IMG/VR virus record: IMGVR_UViG_3300027749_000034
Source of the DNA: a virus
Lineage: Duplodnaviria; Caudoviricetes
Reading direction: 5' to 3' (one strand)
DNA: 64,000 bases
Notes under the pieces: model-generated
Told to the model about the DNA's origin: nothing
The model's input: only the letters and a program-made list of their open reading frames with translations
Database searches by the model: none
In this document: positions 2,132 through 18,512 of the stretch, piece after piece
How the letters are laid out: the number at the start of each line of letters is the position of its first letter
Position numbering within the stretch: position 1 is the first letter of the stretch
Position numbers and translations under genes: made by a program

Positions 2132-2160
2132 CAAAAGGCCATTCGTGGCCTTTTGTTTTT
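2132..2160 (+). terminator. Intrinsic terminator
   Basis: CAAAAGGCCA-TTCG-TGGCCTTTTG perfect stem with UUCG loop followed by a T-tract. Confidence 0.85.
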
Positions 2161-2168: not shown

Positions 2169-2174
2169 GTGTTA

Positions 2175-3833
2175 ATGAATTTCTTTGACAAAATTTCCAA
2201 GCAAGTAAAAGAGCCGCCTAAGAGAAAAGACTTTGGTTATACTGAGTATTTTCAAAAGGCAGAGAACATGCGAGACAACCTGGACAAAATTAGTCCAACA
2301 ATGTGTCTGGCCAAGTGGTTACAAGTCAGTATCAATCTGGCCAACGGTACCACACAAAGTTGTTATCATCCGCCTCCGCATGCTATTCCACTACTAGAGC
2401 TCAAAGAAAATCCCAGCGCATTGCATAACACCAAGTTCAAAAAACAAGAACGAGAACTAATGTTGACTGGCAAGCGGCCAGAAGGTTGTAGTTACTGTTG
2501 GCGTGTGGAAGATGCACCTGGTGGTGGCCCACAAGGACACCTTAGTGATAGACATTACAAGTCCAGCGAAGACTGGGCCGCCCCTGACTTTCGCAATGTA
2601 GTTCTAAAGGAGGCCGATTTCGATATTGTTCCACGATATGTCGAAGTGAATTTTAATCAGGCTTGTAATTTCAAATGCATGTACTGTAGTCCTCATATCA
2701 GTACAGCATGGGAAGAAGAAATCAAACAGCATGGACCTTACAACTTTGACTTGCCGGGCAAAAACAAGGTTGATCATAACAATCTACGCAATTTAAAAGT
2801 TTCAGGATACATGCCGCTAGAAGTTGCTGTCAAAGATAATCCTTATGTGACAGCATTTTGGAAATGGTGGCCAGACATTTATCGTACACTACGAGTATTT
2901 CGTATGACTGGCGGCGAACCATTGATGGATCGGAATACCTTTAAGGTGTTGGACTATGTGAATGAGAATCCACATGGACAATTAGAACTAAGCATTACCA
3001 GCAACATGTGTCCGCCGGATCAAAAGTTATTTGACAAGTTTATTAGCAAAGTACAGGCCATTGAAGTCATACGCACTTATGAAGATACTGAAAACTTCAA
3101 CAAGTTCAGTGGCAATCATTGGTATGTGGACAAGGGCTTTAAACATTTCTGGTTATACATCAGCTTGGACGGAGTAGGTCAGCAAGCAGAATATATGCGT
3201 ACTGGTTTAGACTATGCAAGATTAATGTCCAACACTAGAAAGTTCTTAGCTGAAACTAAGTACACCACTGTCAGTTTCATCAACACCTTTAACATACTGT
3301 CAATTCCAAGTTTAAAAAGTTGGTTGCAAATGATATTAGATTTGCGAGTAGAATTCGGCGGCCGGAATCAAACTGAGTTTGAAATTGCTCCAGAACCAAC
3401 AGAGCACGAAAAAGAACATGGCATTGAACACAAGAAGTATTTCCAAAAGAAGTTCCAAAGAATATTTTTAGACATACCATTGCTAAAATACCCCAACTGG
3501 TTTGATCCACAAAATGCAACGCCAACCTTGATTGCAACCATTGAAGATTGCTTGGAGTTTATGCGTAGCAATGCACAGCAAGAAGATTACAGAGAAACAT
3601 TTGAAGGTTTCAAGCCACATGAGATATTGAAACTTGAAAGAAATCTAGCTATAATTAAAGAAGGCAAAGACCCTGCCGCTGTTCAAACGAATAGATTACA
3701 ATTTTATCAATACATAAATGAGTATGATAGACGCAGAGATACTGCCTTCTTAGAAGTTTTTCCGGAGATGAACTCCTACTACAATGAATGTAAGTTGTTA
3801 CAAATGAGAATAGACGATGCCAAAGAAACATAA
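2175..3833 (+). CDS. Radical SAM protein with N-terminal twitch-like domain (#1)
   Basis: CLAKW..SCYH..CSYCW N-terminal Cys set; CNFKCMYC (CX3CX2C); TGGEP. Confidence 0.9.
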   Translation: MNFFDKISKQVKEPPKRKDFGYTEYFQKAENMRDNLDKISPTMCLAKWLQVSINLANGTTQSCYHPPPHAIPLLELKENPSALHNTKFKKQERELMLTGKRPEGCSYCWRVEDAPGGGPQGHLSDRHYKSSEDWAAPDFRNVVLKEADFDIVPRYVEVNFNQACNFKCMYCSPHISTAWEEEIKQHGPYNFDLPGKNKVDHNNLRNLKVSGYMPLEVAVKDNPYVTAFWKWWPDIYRTLRVFRMTGGEPLMDRNTFKVLDYVNENPHGQLELSITSNMCPPDQKLFDKFISKVQAIEVIRTYEDTENFNKFSGNHWYVDKGFKHFWLYISLDGVGQQAEYMRTGLDYARLMSNTRKFLAETKYTTVSFINTFNILSIPSLKSWLQMILDLRVEFGGRNQTEFEIAPEPTEHEKEHGIEHKKYFQKKFQRIFLDIPLLKYPNWFDPQNATPTLIATIEDCLEFMRSNAQQEDYRETFEGFKPHEILKLERNLAIIKEGKDPAAVQTNRLQFYQYINEYDRRRDTAFLEVFPEMNSYYNECKLLQMRIDDAKET

Positions 3834-5355
3834 TGAATCCTTTGCCGAATACAAAATTCGGATGGTTGACAGCACTAGCGACAGCTTCTGTGCCGCCAAA
3901 TGGCTCAATGCCACAATTTGGTTGGGCAATGGACAAACAACCAGTTGCCACCATCCACTTGGACATCAAATTGATGCAAGTGAACTCGACGCCAATCCCA
4001 CTGCCATTCACAATACACCGCACAAGAAACTCATGCGTAAGATGATGCAGGAAGGTACTCGTCCACAAGAATGTGAGTACTGCTGGAAGATTGAAGACTT
4101 GGGTCGCAACAGCATATCGGATCGTGTGTACAAAACTGCGGTGTTCTCGGACAAAGACATCATTGCGGCCGCTACCACACATTGGCAACACGATACAATG
4201 TTAAAGACATTGGAAATTTCGTTTGACCGTACTTGCAATTTTTCTTGCAGTTATTGCAACCCCAGCTTTAGTACCAGTTGGGTCAAAGACATTAAAAAGT
4301 TTGGCCCATATCGTAACATTGATGGTGATGCCCGTAGCCACTTTATCAATGCGGCTGACCATGCTATTCCAATTGCAGACGAAACCAATCCTTACATCAA
4401 AGCGTTTTGGCGCTGGTGGGATGAAGGGCTAGCCGACAACTTAGAAGAGATTCGAATCACTGGTGGCGAGCCATTGATGGCTCCGGGCGTTTGGAAACTG
4501 ATGCAATGGTTCAAAGACAATCAAGAACGAGCAACCAAACGAGCCGACGGCGGTGTATTGCGTTATGCCATCAACAGTAACCTGGTGCCCAAAGATGACT
4601 TGATGGACAAGTTTATTGAGTTGAGTAAGTTTGTTCCGCACCTGGAAGTTTATACCAGCAATGAAAGTGTGGGCGCACACAGCGAATACATTCGTGATGG
4701 TATGGTCTACAGCAAATGGAAAGACAATTTGCATCGCTTGCACACTGAAGGCAATATTAAAAAGACACACATGATGATGACCATCAATAGTTTGTGTCTT
4801 GCCAGTATCACCGAATTCATGGATGAGATACTGGAATTCAAGCGTGAGCATAAAACTGTATATCCCACAATGAGTTTGAATATTCTGCGTTTTCCCAGCT
4901 TCCAGAGTTGCGCCATGTTGCCAACCAGCATTAGACAAAAGTATCGCGACAAGTTACAAGCATGGTTGGATAATATAATTGCCCAGGATGAACGAGTACA
5001 AATGGGAACTGGCCCACATGGTTGGCCTATCATGACTCCAATTGAGCGTGAACAAACACAACGACTGATTGACTATCTTGATGTCATCAAGACACCGCAC
5101 AAGAATGTCAAGGATATGGGTCAACAGCACTTGGACTTTAAAAACTTCTACACACAATATGATGTGCGTAGAGGCAAGGACTTCCGTGCAACATTTCCAC
5201 AGGAGTTTGTTGATTGGTATGACAGCATTGATACACCAACTCCGTCAAGAGAAGAAATCCTAAGCGGAACATACAGCGATGAAACTGGACATATTCCAGA
5301 CCATCCGCCCGAAGACCCCAGCAAGGAAGAATTTTTCAATCCGGACTTACAATGA
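3817..5355 (+). CDS. Radical SAM protein with N-terminal twitch-like domain (#2)
   Basis: CAAKW..SCHH..CEYCW; CNFSCSYC; TGGEP. Confidence 0.9.
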   Translation: MPKKHNESFAEYKIRMVDSTSDSFCAAKWLNATIWLGNGQTTSCHHPLGHQIDASELDANPTAIHNTPHKKLMRKMMQEGTRPQECEYCWKIEDLGRNSISDRVYKTAVFSDKDIIAAATTHWQHDTMLKTLEISFDRTCNFSCSYCNPSFSTSWVKDIKKFGPYRNIDGDARSHFINAADHAIPIADETNPYIKAFWRWWDEGLADNLEEIRITGGEPLMAPGVWKLMQWFKDNQERATKRADGGVLRYAINSNLVPKDDLMDKFIELSKFVPHLEVYTSNESVGAHSEYIRDGMVYSKWKDNLHRLHTEGNIKKTHMMMTINSLCLASITEFMDEILEFKREHKTVYPTMSLNILRFPSFQSCAMLPTSIRQKYRDKLQAWLDNIIAQDERVQMGTGPHGWPIMTPIEREQTQRLIDYLDVIKTPHKNVKDMGQQHLDFKNFYTQYDVRRGKDFRATFPQEFVDWYDSIDTPTPSREEILSGTYSDETGHIPDHPPEDPSKEEFFNPDLQ

Positions 5356-6737
5356 AACGAGTAATACCAATTTGGGAACCAGGTAAGCCAGCCAAGGACA
5401 ATCCTAACCCTTATTTCTGTATGGCACCTTGGCGCCACACTTACATCAGTCCGCAAAGTGAGCGCAGACTCTGTTGTGCCAGTAGAGAAGAGCACAGCTT
5501 CCAGAAGCAATACATTGACAGTAGCAATGACAAGGCCTACGGAGCAGTGACTGAAAGCAAGACAGCATTGTCAGATTACCAGCCAGTCAGTTTAAAGGAA
5601 CACTGGAACAGCGACTACATGAAAGATATTCGGGTCAAGCTGATGGCTGGTGAAGAAATTCCACAATGTGATGTGTGCAATCATAATTTACTAATGGAAG
5701 GCAGTTACAAGGGTTGGTTTACAGGTAATCTATTTCGCGAACAGATTCAACAGGCGTTTGATGCAACAGATGAAACAGGCCATACCACAATGGAACCTGT
5801 CAGCTTTGACTACAGGTTCAGTAACCTATGCAATTTCAAATGCCGCATGTGTGGAGAACAATTGAGCAGTAGTTGGGAAGTTGAAAAGAAACAGCATGAC
5901 CTATGGACACCCAAAGACCAACCCTTTATGGTTCCTGAAATCAAGTCTGCCATGCAAGACTTCCAAGCTCGTGTGGTAGAACCTGAATTTCGAGATGCAG
6001 TACAGCGTGGTATCATTGAAGAAATGTATTGGGTAGGTGGCGAGCCATTGATGTATGATATACATTGGTGGACGCTTGAAGAAATGCTTCGCAATGGCAG
6101 TGCAAAAGATTGTTACATGCGCTACAACAGCAATCTAAGTCGTGTGGTGTTTGGTAAAAAGAATCTGTTTGATTACTTGCCGCAATTCAAAGACTGGATG
6201 ATGTGTGCCAGCATAGATGGCACAGGTGAAATTGTAGAATATATTCGTACAGGCATCAAGTGGAACGAGTGGCTGGCCAACTTTAAAGAAGGGGTGAGCT
6301 TGCCTGGCGGTCGAGAGCGCATGAAACTGGATTTGACCATCACAGCACCGGGCATGTTCTCTCTCAAAGATCTATTTGAACTAAGCTTGGAATTAGATGT
6401 TGAAATCATCACAAAGATTACATTTGCGTTCCATGCAGATATCATGTGGACACCAATGAGCTGGCCCAGACATATTTTAAATCGTCACATTGAGGAACTT
6501 GTTGCTTACATGCGACCTTTAGCAGGACCAAAGCAATGGAGTGTAATCTCTACCTTAGAGTCCATGCGTGATAGTAGACAAACACATGAAGAAGCCTTTC
6601 CAGAAACTTATAAGTCAGCGGCCCGCAACGGAATGAATTGGGTCAAGCGGTTGGAAACAATCCGCAAAGATAAAACAACCATGGCCACAATCTATTCTGC
6701 AGATCCAGAACTGCTGGCTTGGTGGGAGAGTCTATGA
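5352..6737 (+). CDS. Radical SAM protein with N-terminal twitch-like domain (#3)
   Basis: CMAPW..LCC..CDVC; CNFKCRMC; VGGEP. Confidence 0.9.
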   Translation: MKRVIPIWEPGKPAKDNPNPYFCMAPWRHTYISPQSERRLCCASREEHSFQKQYIDSSNDKAYGAVTESKTALSDYQPVSLKEHWNSDYMKDIRVKLMAGEEIPQCDVCNHNLLMEGSYKGWFTGNLFREQIQQAFDATDETGHTTMEPVSFDYRFSNLCNFKCRMCGEQLSSSWEVEKKQHDLWTPKDQPFMVPEIKSAMQDFQARVVEPEFRDAVQRGIIEEMYWVGGEPLMYDIHWWTLEEMLRNGSAKDCYMRYNSNLSRVVFGKKNLFDYLPQFKDWMMCASIDGTGEIVEYIRTGIKWNEWLANFKEGVSLPGGRERMKLDLTITAPGMFSLKDLFELSLELDVEIITKITFAFHADIMWTPMSWPRHILNRHIEELVAYMRPLAGPKQWSVISTLESMRDSRQTHEEAFPETYKSAARNGMNWVKRLETIRKDKTTMATIYSADPELLAWWESL

Positions 6738-7927
6738 AAGACACAAGATGCGTGTTACCCTGGATGCATCTGGCCAGCCATCCCAATGGCGGCGTTAGTC
6801 TATGCTGTCGTAGCAATCACACTGATGCAGTCAGTTGGGCAATGAAGCCACGCACAACACAATTACAGACCTTTGACAATACCAACATCTTGACCATTGC
6901 CAACAGCGACAACTTTGTTCGTGTACGGCAAGACATGATTGATGGCAAGGAACCTGTTGAATGTGAAGGTTGCTGGCAGGATGAGGCCGCTGGCCTGGTC
7001 AGCAAGCGCATGTACGAAAATGAACGCTGGGCACATATTGTACCAGAGCTGGAACAAACAGCACGATTGACCAAGCCAAACTATCGTTATGTTGAGCTGA
7101 GACTTGGCAATGTATGCAACAATGCCTGCGTGACCTGCAACAGTTTCAGCAGTAGCAAGTGGTACGGAGATGAAGTCAAGATTGCCAAGGATCTGCCTTG
7201 GTTTACATTGCGACCAATGGAAAACTTCAAATGGCATGACCGACCAGAGTTTTATTCTGAGCTGGCCACATTGAGCACAGATGTAGAAGAGATTTACATC
7301 AACGGTGGTGAACCAACACTGATAAAAGCACACTTTGGTTACCTTGAAAAGCTGATAGCCACAGGGCAAGCACAACAGGTACACTTGGTGTACAGTCTTA
7401 ACATGATGGATATTCCAGACAGACTTGCTGACTTATGGAAACACTTTAAACGGGTCACTGTCAACTGTAGTGTCGACGACTACGGTGCTAGAAATTATTA
7501 CATTCGTTGGCCCAGTGTATGGGTTGACACAGTCAACAGCATCAAGAAATTGGATGCAATTCACACTGTGGACTGGCATGTGACACAAACTGTCAGCATA
7601 TTCAATGTGTTTAATCTAGACAAACTGGATGACTGGATGCGATATTCATTTGATAAAAACACAACTCATAACTATGTGTTGTATCCAGACTATCTCAGTT
7701 TACAGGCTGTTCCAACAGCACTTAAAGCACAATTAAAATCCAAGTATGAATACAAGTTTGATGATGCCAAAAGAAATGAATTGTATGCCAAGCTTGACAG
7801 ACCTTGGATTCCTGAATTGACTGTCAAGGCCAGGGAGTTTGTTACAGCGTTGGATAAGAGTCGTGAGTTAAACTATAAAACTTATGTGCCTGAACTAGAA
7901 GAAATTATAAATGCAGATACCAATTAA
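6734..7927 (+). CDS. Radical SAM protein with N-terminal twitch-like domain (#4)
   Basis: CVLPW..LCC..CEGCW; CNNACVTC; NGGEP; ATGA overlap with #3. Confidence 0.9.
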   Translation: MKDTRCVLPWMHLASHPNGGVSLCCRSNHTDAVSWAMKPRTTQLQTFDNTNILTIANSDNFVRVRQDMIDGKEPVECEGCWQDEAAGLVSKRMYENERWAHIVPELEQTARLTKPNYRYVELRLGNVCNNACVTCNSFSSSKWYGDEVKIAKDLPWFTLRPMENFKWHDRPEFYSELATLSTDVEEIYINGGEPTLIKAHFGYLEKLIATGQAQQVHLVYSLNMMDIPDRLADLWKHFKRVTVNCSVDDYGARNYYIRWPSVWVDTVNSIKKLDAIHTVDWHVTQTVSIFNVFNLDKLDDWMRYSFDKNTTHNYVLYPDYLSLQAVPTALKAQLKSKYEYKFDDAKRNELYAKLDRPWIPELTVKAREFVTALDKSRELNYKTYVPELEEIINADTN

Positions 7928-9188
7928 CATTGAACACAGCTTTTGTGCGGCCAAGTGGCTGATGGTCACCATGCACTTTGGCATGGGTGAGAATCACTCC
8001 TGCTATCATCCACCGATACACCGTTGGGACTTGGCGGATGTAAACACGAACCCAGGTGCATTGCACAACAGCAAGCACAAGATCAAACAGCGAGAAATGA
8101 TGCTGAACGGCATCCGTCCCAAAGAGTGTAGCTATTGTTGGGACATGGAAGACATTGATGCCACAGCAGTCAGTGATCGTAAGCGTTTTACCAATGAAAC
8201 CTGGGCTATTGAACGCAGACAAGAGATATTATCTGCGCCAGCTGACCAGCCTGTTGGTCCAGCACACTTGGAAATTTCATTTGCCAACACCTGCAACTTT
8301 GCCTGTAGCTATTGCAGTCCTGGGCAAAGCTCAACATGGGAACACGAAATAAGCAAGTACGGTTCATACCCAATTGAAGATCCAACTGTGCATCGAGACA
8401 AGATGCACGATATGATACCCGAGGATAACAATCCTTACATTGATGCATTTTGGAAGTGGTTACCTGAAATATATTCTGGCCTGCGTTATCTACGCATAAC
8501 AGGTGGAGAGCCTTTGGCCACCCGTAACTTCATGAAGCTGTTGGATTATGTGGCAGAGAATCATAATCCTGAGCTGACACTGGTTGTCAACACCAACCTG
8601 TGTGTACCTGAAAAGAACTTGGATCTATTCTTTACCAAAGCAACAGCATTGCTTGAAGCAAAGACTATTAAAGGACTCGAAGTTTACACCAGCATGGACA
8701 CATGGGGACCACAAGCAGAATACATTCGTGACGGACTTGACATTGTCAAGTGGGAAGCAACAGTACGCAAGGTCAGCACAACATTTGGAGTGCCTATTCG
8801 TGTAATGGTCACATTTGGCCTGATGAGTGTGTTTAACTTCAGTGTGTTTGTACAGAAAGTAATTGACATGCGAGCCGACGGCATTGATATCATGTTCAAT
8901 TGCTGTCGTCTTGTTGACCCCAAGCAGTTTGACCTACGCATCTTGCCAGACAGTTGCGATCAATACTTTGATACAGTCAATGACTTTGTGCTGACCAATC
9001 CTACTGTGAGTGTTGAAAGAGAAACATGGGAAATGGTCTATCAGTTCTGGAAGTCTAGACACACTGCAATGAATGTGATTGAGCGCGATCATCGCCGAGA
9101 TCAATTTGCTCGATTCACAGCAGAGTATGATAAACGCAGAAGCTTAAACTTTGCCGCGACCTTTCCGGAATTGGCAGGATGGATTTAA
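7911..9188 (+). CDS. Radical SAM protein with N-terminal twitch-like domain (#5)
   Basis: CAAKW..SCYH..CSYCW; CNFACSYC; TGGEP. Confidence 0.9.
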   Translation: MQIPINIEHSFCAAKWLMVTMHFGMGENHSCYHPPIHRWDLADVNTNPGALHNSKHKIKQREMMLNGIRPKECSYCWDMEDIDATAVSDRKRFTNETWAIERRQEILSAPADQPVGPAHLEISFANTCNFACSYCSPGQSSTWEHEISKYGSYPIEDPTVHRDKMHDMIPEDNNPYIDAFWKWLPEIYSGLRYLRITGGEPLATRNFMKLLDYVAENHNPELTLVVNTNLCVPEKNLDLFFTKATALLEAKTIKGLEVYTSMDTWGPQAEYIRDGLDIVKWEATVRKVSTTFGVPIRVMVTFGLMSVFNFSVFVQKVIDMRADGIDIMFNCCRLVDPKQFDLRILPDSCDQYFDTVNDFVLTNPTVSVERETWEMVYQFWKSRHTAMNVIERDHRRDQFARFTAEYDKRRSLNFAATFPELAGWI

Positions 9189-10294
9189 CACCTTTTAAAA
9201 ACTGTCTGGCGCATCGGCACGGCCTGTACATATCAAATGAAACCAAGCCATACATGCCTTGCTGTTGGTTCAAGCCCGGAGTCAGTGCCAGTACCTACAG
9301 CGAATATCAAAGTAAATTGAGTGAAATTGATATTGCCGCCGGCTGTCGACATTGTATTGATCAAGAAAGTGCAGGCGCAACATGGAGCCATCGTCAGTTG
9401 TTTAAAGATGTAAATGAGTTGGTCATTGGTGTATGCTTTGACAATCTTTGCAATATCAAATGTATCACTTGTAATCCCTATTATAGTAGTCAGCACATAA
9501 GCGAGTGGGAAAAGTTGGACAAGTTCAATACTCGTGGGCTTACCAAGAAATACTTTAACACCATGCTGGATCAGGGCAGTAGCAAGCTTGCAATGATTGA
9601 AGATACTATATCAAACTCAAGTTTTAATAAGTTACGCTTAGAAATTTTTGGTGGTGAACCATTGATCAATCCAGTGGTGTTGAAGTTCATTGCCTGGCTG
9701 GCCGCCAGTGACCATGCCGATATAACTGAACTGGTTATAACAACAAATGGTACTACCTCACTGACAGTGATTGAATCTGAATTAAAAAACTTCAAGCGAG
9801 TATTGATTCAATTCAGTGTAGATGGAGTTGACGAGGCATTTGATTCAATGCGTTACGGCGCTGACTTTGACAAAATGAAAGTCAATGTTGATTACTTCCG
9901 GGCGTTGACACAGTTGCACAACAATCTAAATTACGGGTTTAATTTTACTTTGTCCTGGCTAAATGCTGATTCATTCCTGCCCTATTACAATTGGTTGCTG
10001 TTAAATTATATTGATGCGGACAGTTTACATTTGACAAAACTAGATAGGCCAGAATATTATGCAGTTAATTTACTGCCAGAGTCTCGACGAGACAGCTTGT
10101 TGTCATTGTTGCCACAGTTGGCACCTAATCAACAGTTTCAAAGACTGTTGGATCTATATAAAGAATCTTTACAATTTACAACCAATATTGACACAGCTCT
10201 GTTGAGTCAAGGCATTAACGAATTGAAAAAGCTAGTGACTGTTCGCAACCATAATGAACATATACAAAGATTGATTGACGAATACCAGACATAA
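9179..10294 (+). CDS. Radical SAM protein with N-terminal twitch-like domain (#6)
   Basis: CLAH..PCCW..CRHC; CNIKCITC; FGGEP. Confidence 0.88.
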   Translation: MDLTPFKNCLAHRHGLYISNETKPYMPCCWFKPGVSASTYSEYQSKLSEIDIAAGCRHCIDQESAGATWSHRQLFKDVNELVIGVCFDNLCNIKCITCNPYYSSQHISEWEKLDKFNTRGLTKKYFNTMLDQGSSKLAMIEDTISNSSFNKLRLEIFGGEPLINPVVLKFIAWLAASDHADITELVITTNGTTSLTVIESELKNFKRVLIQFSVDGVDEAFDSMRYGADFDKMKVNVDYFRALTQLHNNLNYGFNFTLSWLNADSFLPYYNWLLLNYIDADSLHLTKLDRPEYYAVNLLPESRRDSLLSLLPQLAPNQQFQRLLDLYKESLQFTTNIDTALLSQGINELKKLVTVRNHNEHIQRLIDEYQT

Positions 10295-10301
10295 CCTGTT
10301 G

Positions 10302-10309
10302 AATAAATA
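10302..10309 (+). promoter_or_regulatory. Late promoter-like motif AATAAATA
   Basis: 5 nt upstream of ATG 10315; no SD. Confidence 0.5.
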
Positions 10310-10314
10310 TCGCT

Positions 10315-11634
10315 ATGAACACTGAATTTAACCCGCTAGAATTGGCCAAGAAAAGTAGAACCTTCTGTATCCTGCCTTGGATCCATCAATATGTAGGACC
10401 ACCTGGAGATGTCAAGCCCTGCTGTGTATACGAACACAAGGAACAAATTGGCAGTCTCAAACAAAATACACTAAAAGAAATTTGGAACAATGACGCTACG
10501 CGGACCATGCGCCTGAAATTTCTAAACGGTGAAGAAGATGCCAACTGTGGTCGTTGCAACAGCAGAGTTGAATTGGAAGCTGAATTTAAAAATAAATTTA
10601 ACGATGACTTCTTTAAGAACAATCAAGCTGTACACTCAATTGTGGCCGCAACCAATCCTGATGGTAGCCTAGACGAACACAAGTTGATCTACATGGATGT
10701 GCGTTTTAACAATCTATGTAATCTAGGGTGCCGCAGTTGTGGTCCACACTTTAGCACCAGTTGGATTGTGGATAGTCGCAAGCTGTACAACAAGAAGACC
10801 AAAGAATCAATCAATGATGAATTCCAGTTTCCAGGGCAAACAGAAGAACAAGCACTAGAAGAAATGATGCCGCATCTGCCCACAATGAAAAGCATTTATT
10901 TTGCCGGTGGCGAACCATTGATGCAAAAAGAACACTACGAAACACTGAACAAGCTGGTAGAGCTGGGTAATTCGCAATGCGGTATTAGATACAATACAAA
11001 CTTCAGTAAACTGACCCTGGGCAAACATGATGTGATTGAATATTGGAAAAACTTCAAGGATATCAATGTCAATGCCAGTCTGGATGGCAGTTATGCCAAA
11101 GCAGAATACTGGCGTCACGGTACTGTATGGAAGGATGTTGTGGCCAACAGATTGCGAATGCGCGAACAAGCGCCACATGTTAGATTCAACATTGGCTTTA
11201 CGCTCAGTTGGCCCAACGCTCACAACCTGATTGAATTCCACAGAGAATGGGTAGAGCTGGGTTATATTCACCCAGATAACATCTTATTAAATGTTCTAGA
11301 TGGACCAAGCTATTACTCGTTAAAGAATATTCCAGACTGGAAGAAGCATCAAATTGAAAAGCTTTTTAGAGAACAAATGACATGGCTACAGGAACGAGGA
11401 TGCAACAAACAAACCCTGTTCATGTACGAAACAGCTATTGGGTTTATGTGGCAAGTACGCTCACTTGAAACTTATAAGATTACAAACCTGCACGACAGTT
11501 TGAAGAACTTTAGTCGCATTACCAAGAAGCTGGATACAATTCGCGGAGAAGATTTTTGGAAAACATTTCCAGAGCATGCTGATATGCGAGACTACATGAC
11601 CGAGCATGATCTACACGACGAATTTGATTACTAA
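10315..11634 (+). CDS. Radical SAM protein with N-terminal twitch-like domain (#7)
   Basis: CILPW..PCC..CGRC; CNLGCRSC; AGGEP. Confidence 0.9.
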   Translation: MNTEFNPLELAKKSRTFCILPWIHQYVGPPGDVKPCCVYEHKEQIGSLKQNTLKEIWNNDATRTMRLKFLNGEEDANCGRCNSRVELEAEFKNKFNDDFFKNNQAVHSIVAATNPDGSLDEHKLIYMDVRFNNLCNLGCRSCGPHFSTSWIVDSRKLYNKKTKESINDEFQFPGQTEEQALEEMMPHLPTMKSIYFAGGEPLMQKEHYETLNKLVELGNSQCGIRYNTNFSKLTLGKHDVIEYWKNFKDINVNASLDGSYAKAEYWRHGTVWKDVVANRLRMREQAPHVRFNIGFTLSWPNAHNLIEFHREWVELGYIHPDNILLNVLDGPSYYSLKNIPDWKKHQIEKLFREQMTWLQERGCNKQTLFMYETAIGFMWQVRSLETYKITNLHDSLKNFSRITKKLDTIRGEDFWKTFPEHADMRDYMTEHDLHDEFDY

Positions 11635-12887
11635 TGAATGAGCAAAAACTATTTAAAATTCGTCAGGCAACAAGTCCAACATTTTGCTTGGCCAAGTTTC
11701 ACGAAGCAAGTATCTGGGTATACTCAGGCAAGATAGCCAGCTGTCATTATACGCCATTCCTACAGGTTGGCACCACAGTTGACACATTCTACAATCCGCC
11801 AGAAAAACGCAGTCACCAACAGAGTATGCTGGCCGGAGAACAGCCGCCTGCATGCAACAGTTGCTGGCATTTTGAGAATCTTGGCTTGACCAGTGATCGT
11901 ACTCGCAAAAGCCTGGCATTTACGGATCACTTGACAGCAGAGGAATACTTTGATCCTGCTTACAACTTTAAACCAAAAGCATTGGAGTTGGCATTTCAAA
12001 ACACCTGCAACCTGGCCTGTAGCTATTGCAGTCCACAGTTCAGCACCAGCTGGATCAATGATATTCGAACTCGAGGTGTATACACTGGAATCATCACAGA
12101 CGACCGCAAGCACTATCAAAAGGATCTGAGTGAACTGGATGAAATGATTGCGCCCCCAGATATGACATTGTTCTGGCAGTGGTTTGAAACAGTTGCTCCA
12201 GGACTAGAAAGTATTCGTGTCAGTGGTGGTGAACCACTCATGCACGAAGAAGTATTCAAACTGTTTGACCGGATGACCGAAATAAATCCCAATATTGAAT
12301 GTGTCGTACACACTAACCTTTGTCAAAAGCCCGTGGTAATTGAACGCTTCTTAGAAAAAGCCAAGCGATTAAACAACCTGCGTGTCAATGTCAGCAATGA
12401 AAGTGCAGGTGCTGTGGCAGAGTTTATTCGCGAAGGCATGGTCTACGATGAATGGTTGCATAATATGGAATTATTATGCAACAGCAATGTCAGCGTGGCC
12501 ACAGTCAGCACAACCTGTAGCGCAATTAGCCTACAAGCCCTGGATCGAATGTATATTGACATCATTAAAATGCGAGAGCGCACTCGTATTAAACCAGCTG
12601 TCACTATTAATATGGTAGACAAACCAGACTTCCAGGGCTTTGGTTGTTTAAGCAGAGCAGACAGAGACTTTTATATCAAAAAATACACTGCCTTCTATGC
12701 CACGATTCAAAATGATTTACTTCCATTTGAAGTAGAGTACGCTGAACGATTGATTAAAATGTTAGATGCGGGGCTTATTAAAGATAACCAAGCGGCATTG
12801 CGTAAGGATAGCGATACATTCTTTGAACAGTACACACAGCGAAGAAACAAGCCTGTTAACTTTGCACAATTTATAGGCAAAGTATGA
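11634..12887 (+). CDS. Radical SAM protein with N-terminal twitch-like domain (#8)
   Basis: CLAKF..SCHY..CNSCW; CNLACSYC; SGGEP; TAATG coupling. Confidence 0.9.
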   Translation: MNEQKLFKIRQATSPTFCLAKFHEASIWVYSGKIASCHYTPFLQVGTTVDTFYNPPEKRSHQQSMLAGEQPPACNSCWHFENLGLTSDRTRKSLAFTDHLTAEEYFDPAYNFKPKALELAFQNTCNLACSYCSPQFSTSWINDIRTRGVYTGIITDDRKHYQKDLSELDEMIAPPDMTLFWQWFETVAPGLESIRVSGGEPLMHEEVFKLFDRMTEINPNIECVVHTNLCQKPVVIERFLEKAKRLNNLRVNVSNESAGAVAEFIREGMVYDEWLHNMELLCNSNVSVATVSTTCSAISLQALDRMYIDIIKMRERTRIKPAVTINMVDKPDFQGFGCLSRADRDFYIKKYTAFYATIQNDLLPFEVEYAERLIKMLDAGLIKDNQAALRKDSDTFFEQYTQRRNKPVNFAQFIGKV

Positions 12888-13447
12888 TAACAAAATTAGT
12901 TGATCAGTTTCCTAATTTGCTAATCATGGAAGTGCATGATGTTGCCCTTCCGGAGATTAAGTTTGAAGAGTTAGTATACACAGAACCAGACCATCATACC
13001 AATAAAATGTATCCAGGTAAACGATACTATGAGGATTACAAGAATCCTGTTGGTTACAAGGTTAGTTGCCTCTTTAGAGATATAGTGTTTAATTTTATCA
13101 TTCAACCAATGAGAGATGACATGAGATTTAAACCCTATGAACAGTATCTTGGTAACCTTACATTTGGAACACAAATATGTAGAGATGATCCAGGCTGGCA
13201 ACAGCAAATGCACATTGACCAGCCTGTAATATTGTTATCTGGGGTAGTGCATATAACTGATACAATTACACCTACCCATTTTTATGCCAACAGTAATGAT
13301 ACAACGCCAATTTATACAGCACCATCAAAGGCTGGTTCGGGCGCATTCTGGTTAAACCTGCCAAACAGTTGGCATAATGTACCACCTGTAACAGAACAAA
13401 GAAATCACATTATTACATTCGTACAGGTATCAAGAGAAATATGTTAA
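12884..13447 (+). CDS. 2OG-Fe(II) oxygenase-like protein
   Basis: HID...WHNV...R facial-triad-like pattern (HxD...H...R). Confidence 0.65.
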   Translation: MITKLVDQFPNLLIMEVHDVALPEIKFEELVYTEPDHHTNKMYPGKRYYEDYKNPVGYKVSCLFRDIVFNFIIQPMRDDMRFKPYEQYLGNLTFGTQICRDDPGWQQQMHIDQPVILLSGVVHITDTITPTHFYANSNDTTPIYTAPSKAGSGAFWLNLPNSWHNVPPVTEQRNHIITFVQVSREIC

Positions 13448-14367
13448 TTTACAAATACACAGCACCACAGGGCGAAATAAAACAAATTGAAGTTGAATTA
13501 TTAGATAATAAATTTGTCAATGAATGGCAACAATACCTGACTCGTACTGCCGCTAGATTGCCAAGCATATTGTGGAATTTTAGTAGTCATGGTATGGCCA
13601 AACAGTACAAGGCCAATCCAATTCCTTTACTAACTGATTTACATAAGTCATTTGTGTTTTTACAAACTCATCTTGGTATTGACTTTGCTAAAGAAATTGC
13701 AGATTTGGTACACTTACTAGAAGTACCCAACGATTTAACACAGGCACATCTTAATACATGGCATAGACACTTTACCACTGTGGCAACAGAATACTACAGC
13801 GGTCGCATGAAAATACCAGCAGAGGTTAGAGTAGATGAAATGTTCGAACGATTCCATGCATTAAATCAGAATGTACACGATTTAGAGTTTATGACATACC
13901 CGACACTAAGTCGCCGAACAGCCATTGGTGATAAACAACAGTATAGCGCATTCTGTGCCGACGCTAGAGCACTTGAAGGCAGTAATGCGTTGTGGGCCAG
14001 CGGCCACGCAGAAAGTATCACAGACTCGTTTGATCCGGCCACTGAAGAATATCACTATGATGTATGGATCAATGAAGATATACAGGGCAAAGATCATATG
14101 AAGGCCTGGCTAGACGAAGATGACCTATTGGAAACAGATGTGTGGGGCAACAGTTTTATGACTCCGAATGTCATGTTTGATCCTCACATGATATATGCCA
14201 GCATAATTGACAATCCAGCGTTCATGGCCGACTATCAAGCCAGTGCCAAGAAACTGAATCGCTGGCCCTTGGGCAAGATAGTTAACACAGTCGATTGGCC
14301 AAAATTAACCAAGAGCAGGATTAGCTCTATCGTATTAGATAATATTACATTATGGAAAATTCAATGA
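13441..14367 (+). CDS. Hypothetical protein inside the radical SAM operon
   Basis: 308-aa ORF overlapping both neighbours; no family recognised. Confidence 0.75.
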   Translation: MLIYKYTAPQGEIKQIEVELLDNKFVNEWQQYLTRTAARLPSILWNFSSHGMAKQYKANPIPLLTDLHKSFVFLQTHLGIDFAKEIADLVHLLEVPNDLTQAHLNTWHRHFTTVATEYYSGRMKIPAEVRVDEMFERFHALNQNVHDLEFMTYPTLSRRTAIGDKQQYSAFCADARALEGSNALWASGHAESITDSFDPATEEYHYDVWINEDIQGKDHMKAWLDEDDLLETDVWGNSFMTPNVMFDPHMIYASIIDNPAFMADYQASAKKLNRWPLGKIVNTVDWPKLTKSRISSIVLDNITLWKIQ

Positions 14368-15803
14368 AAACAGTGGCATTTGCATTGTATGATCAACTTG
14401 ATCACAAGAATAAAACATACAGAGACCATGTCAGAGCTATTTCTACCTTTGATATTCGTGTCACAATGAACAGGCGCGGTCTAAACAAGCATTCAATTCT
14501 AGAAGGCAACAACATTGATGCATTGATATCACAAGCGTTTGACGCCGGTTACGATTATATCTACCTAATGAACATTGGTTATATCACCAGCGATCATGAC
14601 CTGATCGCAAACATATTGAATTTCGCAGAAGAAAATGAGTATGGATTAGTTGGACATCTATTAGAAGACCAAAAATATTTTAAAGGCCAATCCGAGGGAT
14701 TTTTCCATTTACACACACAAAGCTTTCTTTTAAATCTGCATATATGGAACAATTTTGGTTGTCCACGCTTTGGTGACAAAGGCACAGTACACGATATTAA
14801 AATTGCAGATTACAACAGAAGCGATGAAAACATACACGATGATTATACCCCATTGTGGCTGACACCTGTGGGTGGCCCGCGACCACCAAATTTACAATCA
14901 AATGCCAAAACATACTCGGGCCCGGTCGGGCCCGGTTGGAACTTGATTAATACTTTCCTGACAAATCAATGTGCTGTTGGTAATTTTGATGAATATATTA
15001 GAAGAAAGAAGTCATATCTATATCCAGAAATTGATGACGACAGGTTTGAGCGCATACTGGGTGGCGAGCAAGGAATTACTGTAGAACCCACTGGTCCAAC
15101 TTATGCTCAATGCCATTATCTTAAAGAAACAGACTTTACCAATGTGACAGGCGCAGTATTTGTTTTTAATAACGACAGCATGGAATTAGAAAGAATTAAG
15201 TATTCTCCGACGACACGACTGGGCACATTGTATGCTGTGGCCGCTGGTTTTAAACCTTTACAGTTGCTAAGCCAAGTTGATTGTGATACGGCCCGAGTAG
15301 TGTACATTGACTACAGCCAAGACGCATTAAACTATCGCCAATGGTTAGTTGATAACTGGGACGGTGTTGATTATATGCAGGCCATAGAACAGTACCGACA
15401 AGTAAATCCCAACTTTGATCCAATTTGGCTGCCTGGTCGTCAACAACAGTATCCACAAGAATGGGCAAATACACTTGATTTATTTGGTGGCCAACAACAA
15501 TGGTTAAAGTTTTGGAACAAGTACAAGGCACTGGAGCATGGGTATATTAAAACCAATTTAATAAATGAATATTCGGCCATGCTTGCGGACATGAAACAAA
15601 ATCCTGGTAATAATATGATTTGGATCAGCAACAGCTTCCACACTCCTGCGACAATTAGAAACTTTGCACCAGGCTTATTACAGGACAGCTGGGACGACTT
15701 TCTAAAATCTGTAGTTGACAACAATGTATGTGTACAAATGGTTGGATATGATCACATCGGCGGATATCAAACTCGATTACATGGTAAAATACAATATGAA
15801 TGA
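14364..15803 (+). CDS. Hypothetical two-domain protein (possible GT-A-like N-terminus, Rossmann/methyltransferase-like C-terminus)
   Basis: ORF is solid; the domain guess rests on GYDYIYLMNIG and on LYAVAAGFKP...VVYIDYS, and is weak. Confidence 0.55.
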   Translation: MKTVAFALYDQLDHKNKTYRDHVRAISTFDIRVTMNRRGLNKHSILEGNNIDALISQAFDAGYDYIYLMNIGYITSDHDLIANILNFAEENEYGLVGHLLEDQKYFKGQSEGFFHLHTQSFLLNLHIWNNFGCPRFGDKGTVHDIKIADYNRSDENIHDDYTPLWLTPVGGPRPPNLQSNAKTYSGPVGPGWNLINTFLTNQCAVGNFDEYIRRKKSYLYPEIDDDRFERILGGEQGITVEPTGPTYAQCHYLKETDFTNVTGAVFVFNNDSMELERIKYSPTTRLGTLYAVAAGFKPLQLLSQVDCDTARVVYIDYSQDALNYRQWLVDNWDGVDYMQAIEQYRQVNPNFDPIWLPGRQQQYPQEWANTLDLFGGQQQWLKFWNKYKALEHGYIKTNLINEYSAMLADMKQNPGNNMIWISNSFHTPATIRNFAPGLLQDSWDDFLKSVVDNNVCVQMVGYDHIGGYQTRLHGKIQYE

Positions 15804-16509
15804 ACAGATTGTTGAATTTTTTGCTGACACGCCCTGGACTTTTAATTTTAAAGAACAGGCAGTTCCTGCATTCGATTCCGACAGGGAACTGGTGCAGTGG
15901 CTGATATACAAAAGCGGCTGGCCATACCTGCCATTGGAATTGCCCGGCGCACCTTATGCAGATATGCTGGCAGAAGCCGCGGCATTAGAGGACTTGTATA
16001 TTGCACATAGAAGTTATGGCAGTCCTGGCTGGAGAAGCATTTGCTTACACGGCGAAGCTTGGGACAAGACTGATTATTATACTGCCTACCCTGAAAATGC
16101 AGGCCGTAATGCTAATGAAATTATATATAAATGGACAGAAATTGCAGAACGCTGTCCTGTCACTACCAAATACTTTAAAGACGAATTTCCCAACCACAAT
16201 TATCAGCGATTACGATACATGTGGCTGGATCCGCAGGGCTACATTGAACCACATCAAGACAGGACAGAACATTTCTTATCCCCAATCAATGTGGCATTAA
16301 ACAATCCAGACGGGTGTGTTTTTAGAATGAAAGGTCATGGTGATGTCCCTTTTAAAGATTCGGGCAATGCTTGCCTAGTAGACGTTGGTCGCATACATAG
16401 TGTATGGAACAACAGTTCCGAGCCCAGGATACACATGATATCGCATGGTGCACCTTCCGCTACATTTGACAAAATAGTAGCAGACAGCCTGAGAGCCGCA
16501 CTTAAATGA
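15796..16509 (+). CDS. Aspartyl/asparaginyl beta-hydroxylase-like 2OG-Fe(II) oxygenase
   Basis: RLRYMWLDPQGYIEPHQD...PINVAL...IHSVWNNSSEPRIHMI. Confidence 0.8.
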   Translation: MNEQIVEFFADTPWTFNFKEQAVPAFDSDRELVQWLIYKSGWPYLPLELPGAPYADMLAEAAALEDLYIAHRSYGSPGWRSICLHGEAWDKTDYYTAYPENAGRNANEIIYKWTEIAERCPVTTKYFKDEFPNHNYQRLRYMWLDPQGYIEPHQDRTEHFLSPINVALNNPDGCVFRMKGHGDVPFKDSGNACLVDVGRIHSVWNNSSEPRIHMISHGAPSATFDKIVADSLRAALK

Positions 16510-17672
16510 TATATGACCTGACAAAGATACGCAGAGTACAGATAGAATTATCCAGCAGGTGCAATGCCAGCTGTCCTGCATGCAGTCGCAACTACAGCGG
16601 CGGTCCAGTTGTAGCTGGTTTTGAACAGGTTGATCTAAGTACCAACGACATGCGGACATTTTTCTCTCCAGAAATAATTAAAAATATAGAACACATCAAC
16701 TATTGTGGCAATTTAGGTGATCCGGGCATAGTCAAAGACTTACCCGACACTTTATTGTATTTTAAAGTGCATGGCAATAAAAATTTAAAGCAGGTGGTGC
16801 GGACCAACGGTGGCATGCGTGGCACCGAGCATTGGGCCAAGATTGCCCAACTGTTGCCCAAGCCCAATATCAAGCCAGAATTTGCATTCACCAACAGCGG
16901 AGTGGTGTTTGGAGTCGACGGATTAGAAGACACCAATCACATTTATCGACGCGGTGTTGTGTGGAACAAGGTCTGGGCCAATATGAAAGCATACAGCGAA
17001 GCAGGTGGGTATGGTATTTGGGAGTATTTGATTTTTGATCACAATAAACATCAAGTTGATGAAGCTCGAGCATTGGCCGACACACTGGGCTTTACTTTTA
17101 TTCTTAAAACTCCACTGGGGTTCGGCGAAAATGAGGGAATTCAACGAGCACTGAATGTGCATGACAAAAATGGAGATTACGAATATTCTATTTGGCCGCA
17201 TGACTTTGCAGGCGAAAAAATAATACCCAAAGCGCATAAGACATTTAAGATCAGTTCTATTGTTGGAACAGTTCCGATACTAAGCGAATACAGTAGACAA
17301 TTGGGCAAGGAATCTATAATCAAATGTAAATCATTTGAATATCCAGAACATCAGGAAATTTTTATATCGGCCAGCGGGCATTTGTTGCCCTGCTGTTACC
17401 TTGGCGGCGCATTTGGTCAAAAAAATACCAGTTATGCAAGATATCAATTCAATGAAAAAATTGATAAAACAGGATTAGATGAATTTGACCTTAGAAAACA
17501 CAGCCTGGTTGACATATTGTCCGGCCCCAAATTCAACAACTTCTTCGACGAAGCTTGGAACAAAGATACTGTGGAAAATGGTAAAATGTTATTTTGTGCT
17601 GAAGTATGTGGTCAAAAGAGTTCGCATGATAAAATATACACAAAAGGAACAACTAATGGTCCAACAGTATAA
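16506..17672 (+). CDS. Radical SAM protein with C-terminal SPASM/twitch-like domain (#9)
   Basis: CNASCPAC near the N-terminus; C-terminal C...ISASGHLLPCCY...CAEVC. Confidence 0.88.
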   Translation: MIYDLTKIRRVQIELSSRCNASCPACSRNYSGGPVVAGFEQVDLSTNDMRTFFSPEIIKNIEHINYCGNLGDPGIVKDLPDTLLYFKVHGNKNLKQVVRTNGGMRGTEHWAKIAQLLPKPNIKPEFAFTNSGVVFGVDGLEDTNHIYRRGVVWNKVWANMKAYSEAGGYGIWEYLIFDHNKHQVDEARALADTLGFTFILKTPLGFGENEGIQRALNVHDKNGDYEYSIWPHDFAGEKIIPKAHKTFKISSIVGTVPILSEYSRQLGKESIIKCKSFEYPEHQEIFISASGHLLPCCYLGGAFGQKNTSYARYQFNEKIDKTGLDEFDLRKHSLVDILSGPKFNNFFDEAWNKDTVENGKMLFCAEVCGQKSSHDKIYTKGTTNGPTV

Positions 17673-17675
17673 ATA
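17668..17675 (+). promoter_or_regulatory. T4-type late promoter TATAAATA
   Basis: Exact T4 late consensus upstream of the nuclease gene. Confidence 0.55.
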
Positions 17676-17696: not shown

Positions 17697-18512
17697 ATGA
17701 AAAAAATTATTATATCAGCATTGTTTCTTTGCTCCACATTGAGTCACGCTTGGGAACAAAGACCACCACTACCACCACAGGCATGTGCAGTACATGCACC
17801 CTATGGATTCCCACAAACAGCAGGTGTACAACCCATTTGCCGCCAGGCTTACCTGGTAGGTTATGATGCCGCTGCCAAACTACCAAAATATGTCACATAT
17901 GAACTGTTGCCGCAGAATGCACTAGGTTGCGTTGCCCGCACAAATGCATTTGTGCAAGATCAAAGCATACAAAATGGACCACGCCCAGATGACTATGCGG
18001 CCACCGGTTACGACAAAGGACACATGAGTCCTGACGGTGATTTGTCGTGGGATGTGCAAGTTGAGTTTGAGTCATTCCTAATGACCAACATGAGTCCACA
18101 AGCAGGAAGTTTAAATCGCGGAATTTGGAAACTATTAGAAACTAGTGTGCGTGGATGGGCAGTTCAACTTAATCAACCCTTTACAATTTATGTTGGCGGC
18201 GTTTACAATGCTCAAGACAAGAAGATTGGTAATGGTGTAGTTGTTCCGCACGGCTTCTACAAAATTGTCATCAACAATGCCACAAAACAAACAGCAGGAT
18301 GGGCATTTCCCCATGTTGCACCTTACCCAAATTTAGGAAATGATTTGACTAAATATCGTATGCCTGTAGCACAGATAATGCAAACGGCAGGGGTAAATTT
18401 TGCTTTCCCACCAGGGGCAGTCGAACTTGCACCCGGACAGGAATGGCCAGTTGATTTTGGTATGTTAACCAATGCGAAACGGGCAAAATGTGGTGCTAGC
18501 GCATCACCTTAA
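17697..18512 (+). CDS. DNA/RNA non-specific endonuclease (NucA/EndoG-like) with signal peptide
   Basis: YDKGHM motif, MTNMSPQ..LNRGIWKLLE, VVVPHGFYK; hydrophobic N-terminus ending SHA. Confidence 0.9.
   Translation: MKKIIISALFLCSTLSHAWEQRPPLPPQACAVHAPYGFPQTAGVQPICRQAYLVGYDAAAKLPKYVTYELLPQNALGCVARTNAFVQDQSIQNGPRPDDYAATGYDKGHMSPDGDLSWDVQVEFESFLMTNMSPQAGSLNRGIWKLLETSVRGWAVQLNQPFTIYVGGVYNAQDKKIGNGVVVPHGFYKIVINNATKQTAGWAFPHVAPYPNLGNDLTKYRMPVAQIMQTAGVNFAFPPGAVELAPGQEWPVDFGMLTNAKRAKCGASASP

Follow-up and report, generated by a model that had tools for sequence, protein, structure and literature searches.

The stretch of DNA analysed here (the window) is 64,000 nucleotides of a lake phage, virus record IMGVR_UViG_3300027749_000034 (Duplodnaviria; Caudoviricetes). 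It contains five intact open reading frames (ORFs) on the + strand, at positions 12884-17672, directly after the eighth of a tandem series of radical S-adenosylmethionine (rSAM) genes. The rSAM genes are referred to as r1 to r8, and the five that follow as A to E (Table 1). Genes A and D encode predicted oxygenases of the type that uses Fe(II) and 2-oxoglutarate (2OG), B a predicted cyclophilin-like barrel, C a predicted fusion of glycosyltransferase-like and methyltransferase-like domains, and E a ninth rSAM protein. This report addresses the five genes, and specifically B, C and D, which travel together, adjacent or fused, in hundreds of phages of aquatic origin and in predatory bacteria.

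An earlier note on this DNA had described five directly coupled genes with overlaps of 4-8 nt, forming the end of a 13-gene, 15.5-kb unit that mixes rSAM enzymes with O2-dependent oxygenases. The description holds. All the reading frames are open and the overlaps are 4, 7, 4, 8 and 4 nt. A hairpin scan of the + strand found no terminator inside the 13-gene unit, and the only strong terminator-like hairpin on that strand of the window (10 pairs and a T run) closes the upstream unit just before r1. Because of the overlaps, the lack of an internal terminator and the hairpin before r1, A to E are read from the sequence as the distal third of one translationally coupled, co-directional operon of 13 genes. 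The mixture is one of nine rSAM proteins and two predicted Fe(II)/2OG oxygenases.

At the far end, the T4 late-promoter consensus TATAAATA runs across the E stop codon and marks a possible boundary of the operon; matches to this motif are not enriched in the window (3 against 3.2 expected). The next gene (17697-18512) encodes a signal-peptide-bearing Endonuclease_NS protein, a DNA/RNA non-specific endonuclease. Lake metatranscriptome contigs from two studies cover fragments of r7, r8, B, C, D and the nuclease gene, and one of them spans the D/E junction (16339-16555). These contigs, whose strand, ends and levels are not readable, are compatible with transcription and with co-transcription of D and E; they are weak support because contigs from RNA libraries can include DNA. 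The stretches that they leave uncovered are no sign of silence.

Table 1. Features of the operon and its boundaries, in window coordinates
Feature	Position	Strand	Basis or remark
Gene A, 187 aa, predicted small 2OG/Fe(II) oxygenase, prolyl-hydroxylase-like (PF13640-type) fold	12884..13447	+	
Gene B, 308 aa, predicted cyclophilin-like beta-barrel (about 1-50, 165-303) with inserted four-helix bundle (about 53-160)	13441..14367	+	
Gene C, N-terminal domain, residues 1-256, GT-A-fold glycosyltransferase-like	14364..15131	+	AlphaFold2 (AF2) model
Gene C, C-terminal domain, residues 257-479, class-I (Rossmann) methyltransferase-like	15132..15803	+	AF2 model
Gene D, 237 aa, predicted AspH/LpxO-type cupin Fe(II)/2OG hydroxylase	15796..16509	+	PF05118
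Gene E, 388 aa, ninth rSAM, unpermuted paralogue of r1-r8	16506..17672	+	Cys positions, hhalign
r8/A junction	r8 stop 12887, A start 12884	+	4 nt overlap
A/B junction	A stop 13447, B start 13441	+	7 nt overlap
B/C junction	B stop 14367, C ATG 14364 (giving 479 aa)	+	4 nt overlap
C/D junction	C stop 15803, D ATG 15796 (giving 237 aa)	+	8 nt overlap
D/E junction	D stop 16509, E start 16506	+	4 nt overlap
r1-r8, eight tandem N-terminal-twitch rSAM genes, proximal part of the operon	2169..12887	+	NF033640
Terminator-like hairpin, 10 pairs and T run, just before r1	2132..2155	+	
TATAAATA, T4 late-promoter consensus	17668..17675	+	overlaps E stop codon, 22 nt before nuclease gene

Predicted folds and active sites of A to D

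Gene D matches the Pfam family PF05118 (Asp_Arg_Hydrox) with 46.8 bits and an E value of 3.7e-12, above the cut-off of 22.6 bits, in agreement with its earlier description as Asp/Asn-hydroxylase-like. This is the family of human AspH and bacterial LpxO, and D keeps the metal and 2OG ligands. As H153-x-D155, H201 and R211 are invariant across 27 orthologues, D should be an active Fe(II)/2OG hydroxylase. Its nearest solved relatives in a profile search are the 182-aa beta-hydroxylase 7v4f (3e-5), the L-proline cis-4-hydroxylase 4p7w and human AspH. Unlike AspH, D is a minimal cupin without tetratricopeptide-repeat or membrane parts, and it stands in a fixed partnership with C and B. Aspartyl/asparaginyl beta-hydroxylase genes have been listed as auxiliary in cyanomyophages and pelagimyophages (PMC3037559, PMC7029224).

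The products of B and C had been left as unknowns of 308 and 479 aa in the earlier note. That neither has a match in Pfam, NCBIfam or PHROG still stands, but folds can now be predicted for both. The model of C was built with AF2 from 23 homologues and has a predicted local distance difference test (pLDDT) value of 91.2. Its first 256 residues superpose with VIA Z scores of 10-12 on GT2-type synthases, TarP, LH3/ColGalT1 and PBCV-1 A64R, the root-mean-square deviation (rmsd) to the GT2-type enzymes being 2.7-3.5 A over 140-165 residues. Foldseek returns ColGalT1, LH3 and AGPase at E of about 1e-4, and the domain matches GT2 and GT25 proteins in BFVD and GT2, GT25 and GT34 proteins over BFVD and the ESM Atlas together. 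Residues 257-475 superpose on methyltransferases, with Z scores of 11.2 (6ulo), 9.7 (INMT with S-adenosylhomocysteine), 9.2 (CheR) and 8.7 (the methyltransferase domain of OvoA). A sequence search of the PDB gave nothing for C at E <= 1.

Conservation within the C family falls on both domains. H98, H117 and H158 are invariant in the GT-A domain, and at least 90% of sequences keep D159 and D160. E101-D102 stands at the usual DXD position, after the fourth strand, and follows the family-consensus majority outside the 90%-conserved columns. In the methyltransferase domain G295, K297 and D316 are invariant; D316 ends strand 2, and motif I reads A-A-G295-F-K297, with a single Gly instead of GxGxG. 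The likely active sites of C, as conservation would place them, are H98, H117, H158, D159, D160, G295, K297 and D316.

The model of B (AF2, 80 homologues, pLDDT 95.7) combines a cyclophilin-like barrel with a helix bundle that carries the family-invariant N105, H108 and H146 and the near-invariant N142 and E149. Its resemblance to cyclophilins is middling: a peptidyl-prolyl isomerase match in the Atlas, a protein of 143 aa, has a template-modelling (TM) score of 0.70 with 138 residues aligned and an rmsd of 3.4 A, and many cyclophilins give VIA Z scores of 7.3-8.3 over residues 1-303. B does not carry the Pro_isomerase signature; Foldseek found nothing in the PDB at E <= 1e-3, and a profile search of PDB sequences nothing below E 0.07. 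An exhaustive profile search collects 144 representative clusters at E <= 1e-3 for the B family. With the enlarged alignment of B, a family of about 315 aa, here called X315, is homologous to it (hhalign probability 97.4%, E 1.2e-11, 240 columns), and by sequence B can be taken to belong to X315, the family found with D and C. B represents a new protein family, with a domain combination that is confident but unmatched. A prediction of the complex of D with B scored 0.00, which counts neither for nor against binding.

Gene A has no Pfam family at E <= 0.1, and no 2OG oxygenase model matched it. The ESM Atlas model of an identical protein superposes on PF13640 and PF13661 2OG-Fe(II) oxygenase clusters, including OGFOD1-like prolyl hydroxylases, with TM scores of 0.71-0.77, and the HxD...H...R motif is present (H110-x-D112, H164, R173). 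By fold and motif A is therefore predicted to be a 2OG/Fe oxygenase, as had been supposed. A is missing from two relatives that are 67-79% identical, in which r8 leads straight into B. A 4.4-kb contig from another lake sample (DNA run X4) connects position 12874 with 13483, the 608 bases being replaced by 54 different letters. A is a strain-variable accessory gene of the indel type, and its presence or absence is polymorphic.

A portable module and its radical SAM partners

Relatives of C were collected with a C profile on 245 viral contigs, of which the best 80, together with the window, were analysed; 45 phage lineages remained after dereplication at 90% identity of C. D adjoins C or is fused to it in 43 of the 45, and a gene of the B/X315 family lies no more than three genes away in 29. 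The fusions take several forms. A 673-aa D+C fusion (L028) carries PF05118 at its N-terminus, and B+D fusions occur at three loci (L048, L051, L053). All three parts are joined in a 1062-aa protein of a Bdellovibrio metagenome-assembled genome (L131) and in a 1012-aa protein, P0097, with domains at 8-295, 319-503, 599-768 and 793-961. In some marine phages C is fused to a B12-binding rSAM in a protein of 1170 aa (L052:9866-13378; also L061, L064 and L073), which is a direct physical link of the module to radical chemistry.

The module is not confined to phages. When one genome per prokaryotic species was scanned, the same B/D/C set, often with rSAM genes and on contigs as long as 3 Mb, was found in Bacteriovoracaceae, Halobacteriovoraceae, Pseudobdellovibrionaceae and Bdellovibrionales. 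Neither tblastn nor blastn matched C, D, the D+C fusion or the module DNA of L028 to a GenBank phage record; the control query r7 did find the Vibrio phages K566 and K567 and the Ralstonia phage RsoM2USA. On these sequence comparisons we regard B, C and D as a conserved module evolving as a unit, in aquatic myophages and in Bdellovibrionota. What is new is this unit of a hydroxylase, a glycosyltransferase/methyltransferase and a cyclophilin-like protein, adjacent or fused. Surveys of cyanomyophage and pelagimyophage auxiliary genes contain no description of the module or its product (PMC3037559, PMC7029224, PMC5332604).

The link to rSAM genes was followed in 22 dereplicated phage loci with at least 8 kb on each side, with rSAM genes looked for within 8-10 kb. 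They stand beside the module in 15 of the 22 (12 of them with four or more) and are absent in seven. The module is thus linked to rSAM arrays yet separable from them, an association with N-twitch rSAM arrays that is strong but not obligatory. Two earlier ideas have to be qualified by these counts. The view of A to E as tailoring genes that continue the array is right in that they share its operon, but B, C and D are a separate module whose parts are fused elsewhere, and A comes and goes as an indel. The neighbourhood of homologues, proposed as a check, upholds the company of rSAM genes at most of these loci and partly refutes a single indivisible cluster.

Within the array, seven of r1 to r8 match NF033640 (N_Twi_rSAM) with 242-356 bits, above the cut-off of 170. 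The remaining one, r6 (9179-10294, 371 aa), reaches 142 bits with the initial 53 positions of the model missing, its N-terminal twitch domain being shortened. Weak MoaA matches are given by r1, r2 and r8, and matches to HxsB or HxsC among the operon proteins are negligible.

E had been called a ninth, conventionally arranged rSAM, and the arrangement of its cysteines agrees: a CX3CX2C core at C19/C23/C26 near the N-terminus and an auxiliary set in a twitch/SPASM-like domain at the C-terminus (C274, C296, C297, C364, C368). Its SPASM match of 21.3 bits lies just under the cut-off of 21.5, and NF033640 matches it with 39-40 bits over the core alone (model positions 107-268), far below that family's cut-off. 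The core is nevertheless shared with the N_Twi core (hhalign probability 98.5%; a phrog_21308 match at 9e-16). Because the core is N-terminal and the auxiliary-cluster domain C-terminal, the domain order of E is opposite to that of r1 to r8. The C-terminal Cys domain has the same C..CC..C..C pattern as the N-terminal domain of r7, with an hhalign probability of 11-30%. An E-type rSAM lies no more than two genes from C in 6 of the 45 lineages.

The array also exists alone. In the cultured 255-kb Vibrio phage K566 (L222, OZ196521.1 160041-168284), genes for hypothetical proteins are interspersed among four N-twitch rSAM genes; the phage has no B, C or D. For laboratory work on an array without the module, K566 and, with a weaker r7 match, RsoM2USA could be suitable models. 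Surveys have placed rSAM cassettes among the auxiliary genes of cyanomyophages and pelagimyophages (PMC3037559, PMC7029224, PMC5332604). Like the NF033640 and rSAM/SPASM maturase cassettes, the operon in the window combines several rSAM paralogues with oxygenases, r1 to r8 being members of the first and E sharing the core; unlike the NF033640 members, E has its auxiliary Cys domain at the C-terminus. Unlike the maturase cassettes, the operon and its 83 related loci have no HxS/CHxS repeat substrate protein.

Orthologues of r1 lie on 109 viral contigs, usually immediately after tail-fibre-type genes that contain a Peptidase_G2 IMC domain. Directly before r1 stands, in 65 of 80 r1-related loci, a 317-aa protein, Family 1 (for example L147:7045-7992), whose domain of about 240 aa has a GT-A-like consensus with a 'LIDGDN' motif of the DXD type. 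Giant proteins, the longest with 1942 aa, also end in this domain (L192:11088-16916). Family 1 was considered as a substrate and rejected: it is GT-A-like with a DGD motif, unrelated to B/X315, and absent from the window and the 96.6-kb record.

The acceptor and its alternatives

The best explanation, to which we give a probability of roughly 0.4, is a coupled operon with B-C-D at its heart that acts on a protein acceptor encoded elsewhere. D, with the strain-variable A, would put a hydroxyl on the acceptor using O2 and 2-oxoglutarate; the GT-A domain of C would add a sugar on or beside that hydroxyl, and its second domain would methylate. B may hold or present the acceptor or supply a metal site, predicted to be of the His/His/Glu type, and the nine rSAM enzymes would run O2-independent radical steps on the same acceptor or its sugar. 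The acceptor would be a virion or host-envelope protein, hydroxylated and glycosylated as in the maturation of collagen or epidermal growth factor (EGF) domains, and not a dedicated precursor peptide of the operon. The hydroxylate-glycosylate-methylate chemistry is likely, judged from folds, conserved ligands and fusions.

AspH, P4H/OGFOD1-like, cyclophilin and ColGalT1/LH3-like GT-A enzymes act on proteins. Because these families have protein substrates, and r1 orthologues sit behind tail-fibre-type genes, we lean slightly towards a protein over a small-molecule acceptor, with nucleic acid as a minor rival. A bolder form of the idea, which we rate as doubtful, is that B-C-D would be a self-contained machine for protein hydroxylation, glycosylation and methylation with a cyclophilin-like substrate handler, a counterpart, in bacterial viruses and bacterial predators, of collagen- or EGF-type maturation. 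With up to ten N-twitch rSAM enzymes it would put a heavily tailored modification of a kind not seen before on a virion or prey-contact protein whose gene lies elsewhere in the genome.

Several observations weigh against a protein acceptor encoded elsewhere. Acceptors were sought in the window, in the 96.6-kb record and within 10 kb of the 83 related loci, and no precursor-like or short conserved ORF was found there or in the operon; the remark that the cluster has no obvious substrate gene is borne out over this whole range. No structural genes adjoin the operon in the window, which has redoxin and DUF3307 genes on one side and the nuclease on the other. In C the canonical DXD and GxGxG motifs show no strict conservation, and the rSAM-free locus L028 lies in a T4-type replication block, among gp46/47-like, cobT-like, cobS, gp45 and gp44/62 homologues. 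To these are added the points, taken up below, that favour a small molecule: the enzymes beside related loci, the bacterial company of C and the solved relatives of D.

Two particular protein acceptors were rejected. A tail protein with CHxS repeats and an RGRR end fails since over the same range there is no CHxS repeat, RGRR end, poly-Ser or HxS/HxD array. Other repeat ORFs are likewise missing from the window and the 96.6-kb record, apart from the collagen-like one taken up next. A collagen-like acceptor would have its sole candidate in an ORF of 1247 aa with five collagen-like Gly-x-y runs, about 3.5-4.5 kb past the end of the window (about 67508-68551; G000:C1) and about 50 kb from the operon. 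It is probably a fibre protein, and since the 10 kb around each of the 83 related loci contain no collagen-like ORF, no link to the operon is apparent.

The best placed of the alternatives, although somewhat unlikely, is a sugar, nucleotide-sugar or nucleoside-like compound that the operon builds or tailors, a surface-glycan block or an antimetabolite, with no protein acceptor. The genes that stand near the module or near r1 orthologues in relatives speak for it: a carbamoyltransferase (a family present in 15 of the 83 loci), an NAD-dependent epimerase/dehydratase, an aminotransferase-like protein, a PP-loop ATPase, the GT-A-like family with the DGD motif, and the B12-rSAM fused to C. So do the missing precursor gene, the free-amino-acid hydroxylase (L-proline cis-4-hydroxylase) among the nearest solved relatives of D, and the MoaA matches of r1, r2 and r8; small molecules are the substrates of twitch-type rSAM enzymes such as MoaA and BtrN.

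Bacteria offer a further argument for a small molecule. Distant C paralogues occur in Planctomycetota, Gammaproteobacteria, Actinomycetota and others (L105:8274-14229 and about 30 bacterial loci, L088-L140). Their conserved operon holds a GTP cyclohydrolase II (RibA), a RibD_C-type pyrimidine reductase, the glycosyltransferase/methyltransferase, a WD40 protein of 620-630 aa and a sulfotransferase-like protein, sometimes followed by Wzz. These families are present in 28-40 of 60 loci, and the glycosyltransferase/methyltransferase, WD40 and sulfotransferase-like parts have no Pfam or NCBIfam name. ToxC of the toxoflavin pathway is a WD-repeat protein. Toxoflavin-type operons consist of ToxB (GTP cyclohydrolase II), ToxE (deaminase-reductase), ToxC, ToxD and the methyltransferase ToxA, and the bacterial C paralogues stand between RibA/RibD_C-type genes and the WD40 protein, an enzyme set that recalls toxoflavin biosynthesis (PMC13755311). 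The C family may thus be able to work in GTP-derived small-molecule pathways.

Against a small-molecule product, the C of the phages and Bdellovibrionota is a different branch, only 22-29% identical to the bacterial one, and its partners are D and B, not RibA and RibD_C. The function of bacterial C need not transfer, because of this low identity and the different partners. The toxoflavin-like operons, for their part, have no D or B partner and no rSAM, and the phage operon has no such genes. Module-only phages lack other pathway genes beside the module, the operon in the window is without sugar-nucleotide enzymes, and a cyclophilin-like partner with an AspH-type hydroxylase is more typical of protein substrates.

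It is improbable that the acceptor is a nucleic-acid base, of phage DNA or tRNA, hydroxylated and then glycosylated and methylated by analogy with JBP/JGT and base J or with thymidine and deazaguanine hypermodification. A hydroxylase followed by a GT-A glycosyltransferase is the logic of base J, the module-only loci that were examined fall within the block of replication genes, and six marine loci have a QueC/TilS-like PP-loop gene before D-C; that match is generic, at 25 bits against a cut-off of 150. Phage DNA hypermodification clusters combine rSAM, pyridoxal-phosphate and transferase enzymes (PMC5889632). D, however, is an AspH-type cupin and not a TET/JBP-type oxygenase. Profile searches found no DNA-binding or base-flipping domain, DpdA/TGT or nucleotide kinase in the module, and in Bdellovibrionota, where the module is chromosomal, no DNA-modification system was seen in the flanks examined.

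That A to E are unrelated auxiliary genes merely downstream of the rSAM array, with no shared pathway, is very improbable and for B-C-D already largely refuted: the independent gain and loss of A, the seven of 22 loci without rSAM genes and the K566 array without B, C and D fit it, but the C-D adjacency or fusion (43/45), the B+D+C fusions and the rSAM neighbours (15/22) are far beyond chance, as is the recurrence of the B/D/C-plus-rSAM set in Bdellovibrionota, and the operon is translationally coupled throughout.

Known systems and significance

For the preferred protein acceptor, the closest comparison is the collagen system, in which LH3/PLOD3 and ColGalT1 (GT25) act beside P3H1/CRTAP/cyclophilin B. 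Both have an Fe(II)/2OG hydroxylase genetically or physically fused to a GT-A-fold transferase, and a partner that has or, in the case of B, is predicted to resemble the cyclophilin fold; both would share the logic of hydroxylating and then glycosylating, and LH3, ColGalT1 and PPIB chains are among the structural matches of C and B. The homology is at the level of fold only. D is an AspH-type cupin and not an LH domain, a methyltransferase domain is added in C, B contains four inserted helices and lacks the Pro_isomerase signature, and a collagen-like gene is absent within 10 kb of the 83 loci. The resemblance is best taken as an analogy and not as membership.

Pelagimyophages and cyanomyophages have a hypervariable 'host recognition cluster' that holds tail-fibre genes, glycosyltransferases and rSAM cassettes (Zaragoza-Solas et al. 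2020, PMC7029224). The position of r1 orthologues behind tail-fibre-type genes in relatives is like it; the operon in the window, unlike it, lies outside the structural region, and PMC7029224 gives no function.

Large aquatic phages devote at least 15 kb to rSAM arrays. Selection has repeatedly brought O2-dependent and O2-sensitive enzymes together in a single operon. The B+D+C core is small, conserved and often one polypeptide; since it can be produced and assayed by itself, an opaque 13-gene cluster becomes a tractable biochemical question. That predatory Bdellovibrionota carry this core too hints at a role connected with the attack on Gram-negative cells.

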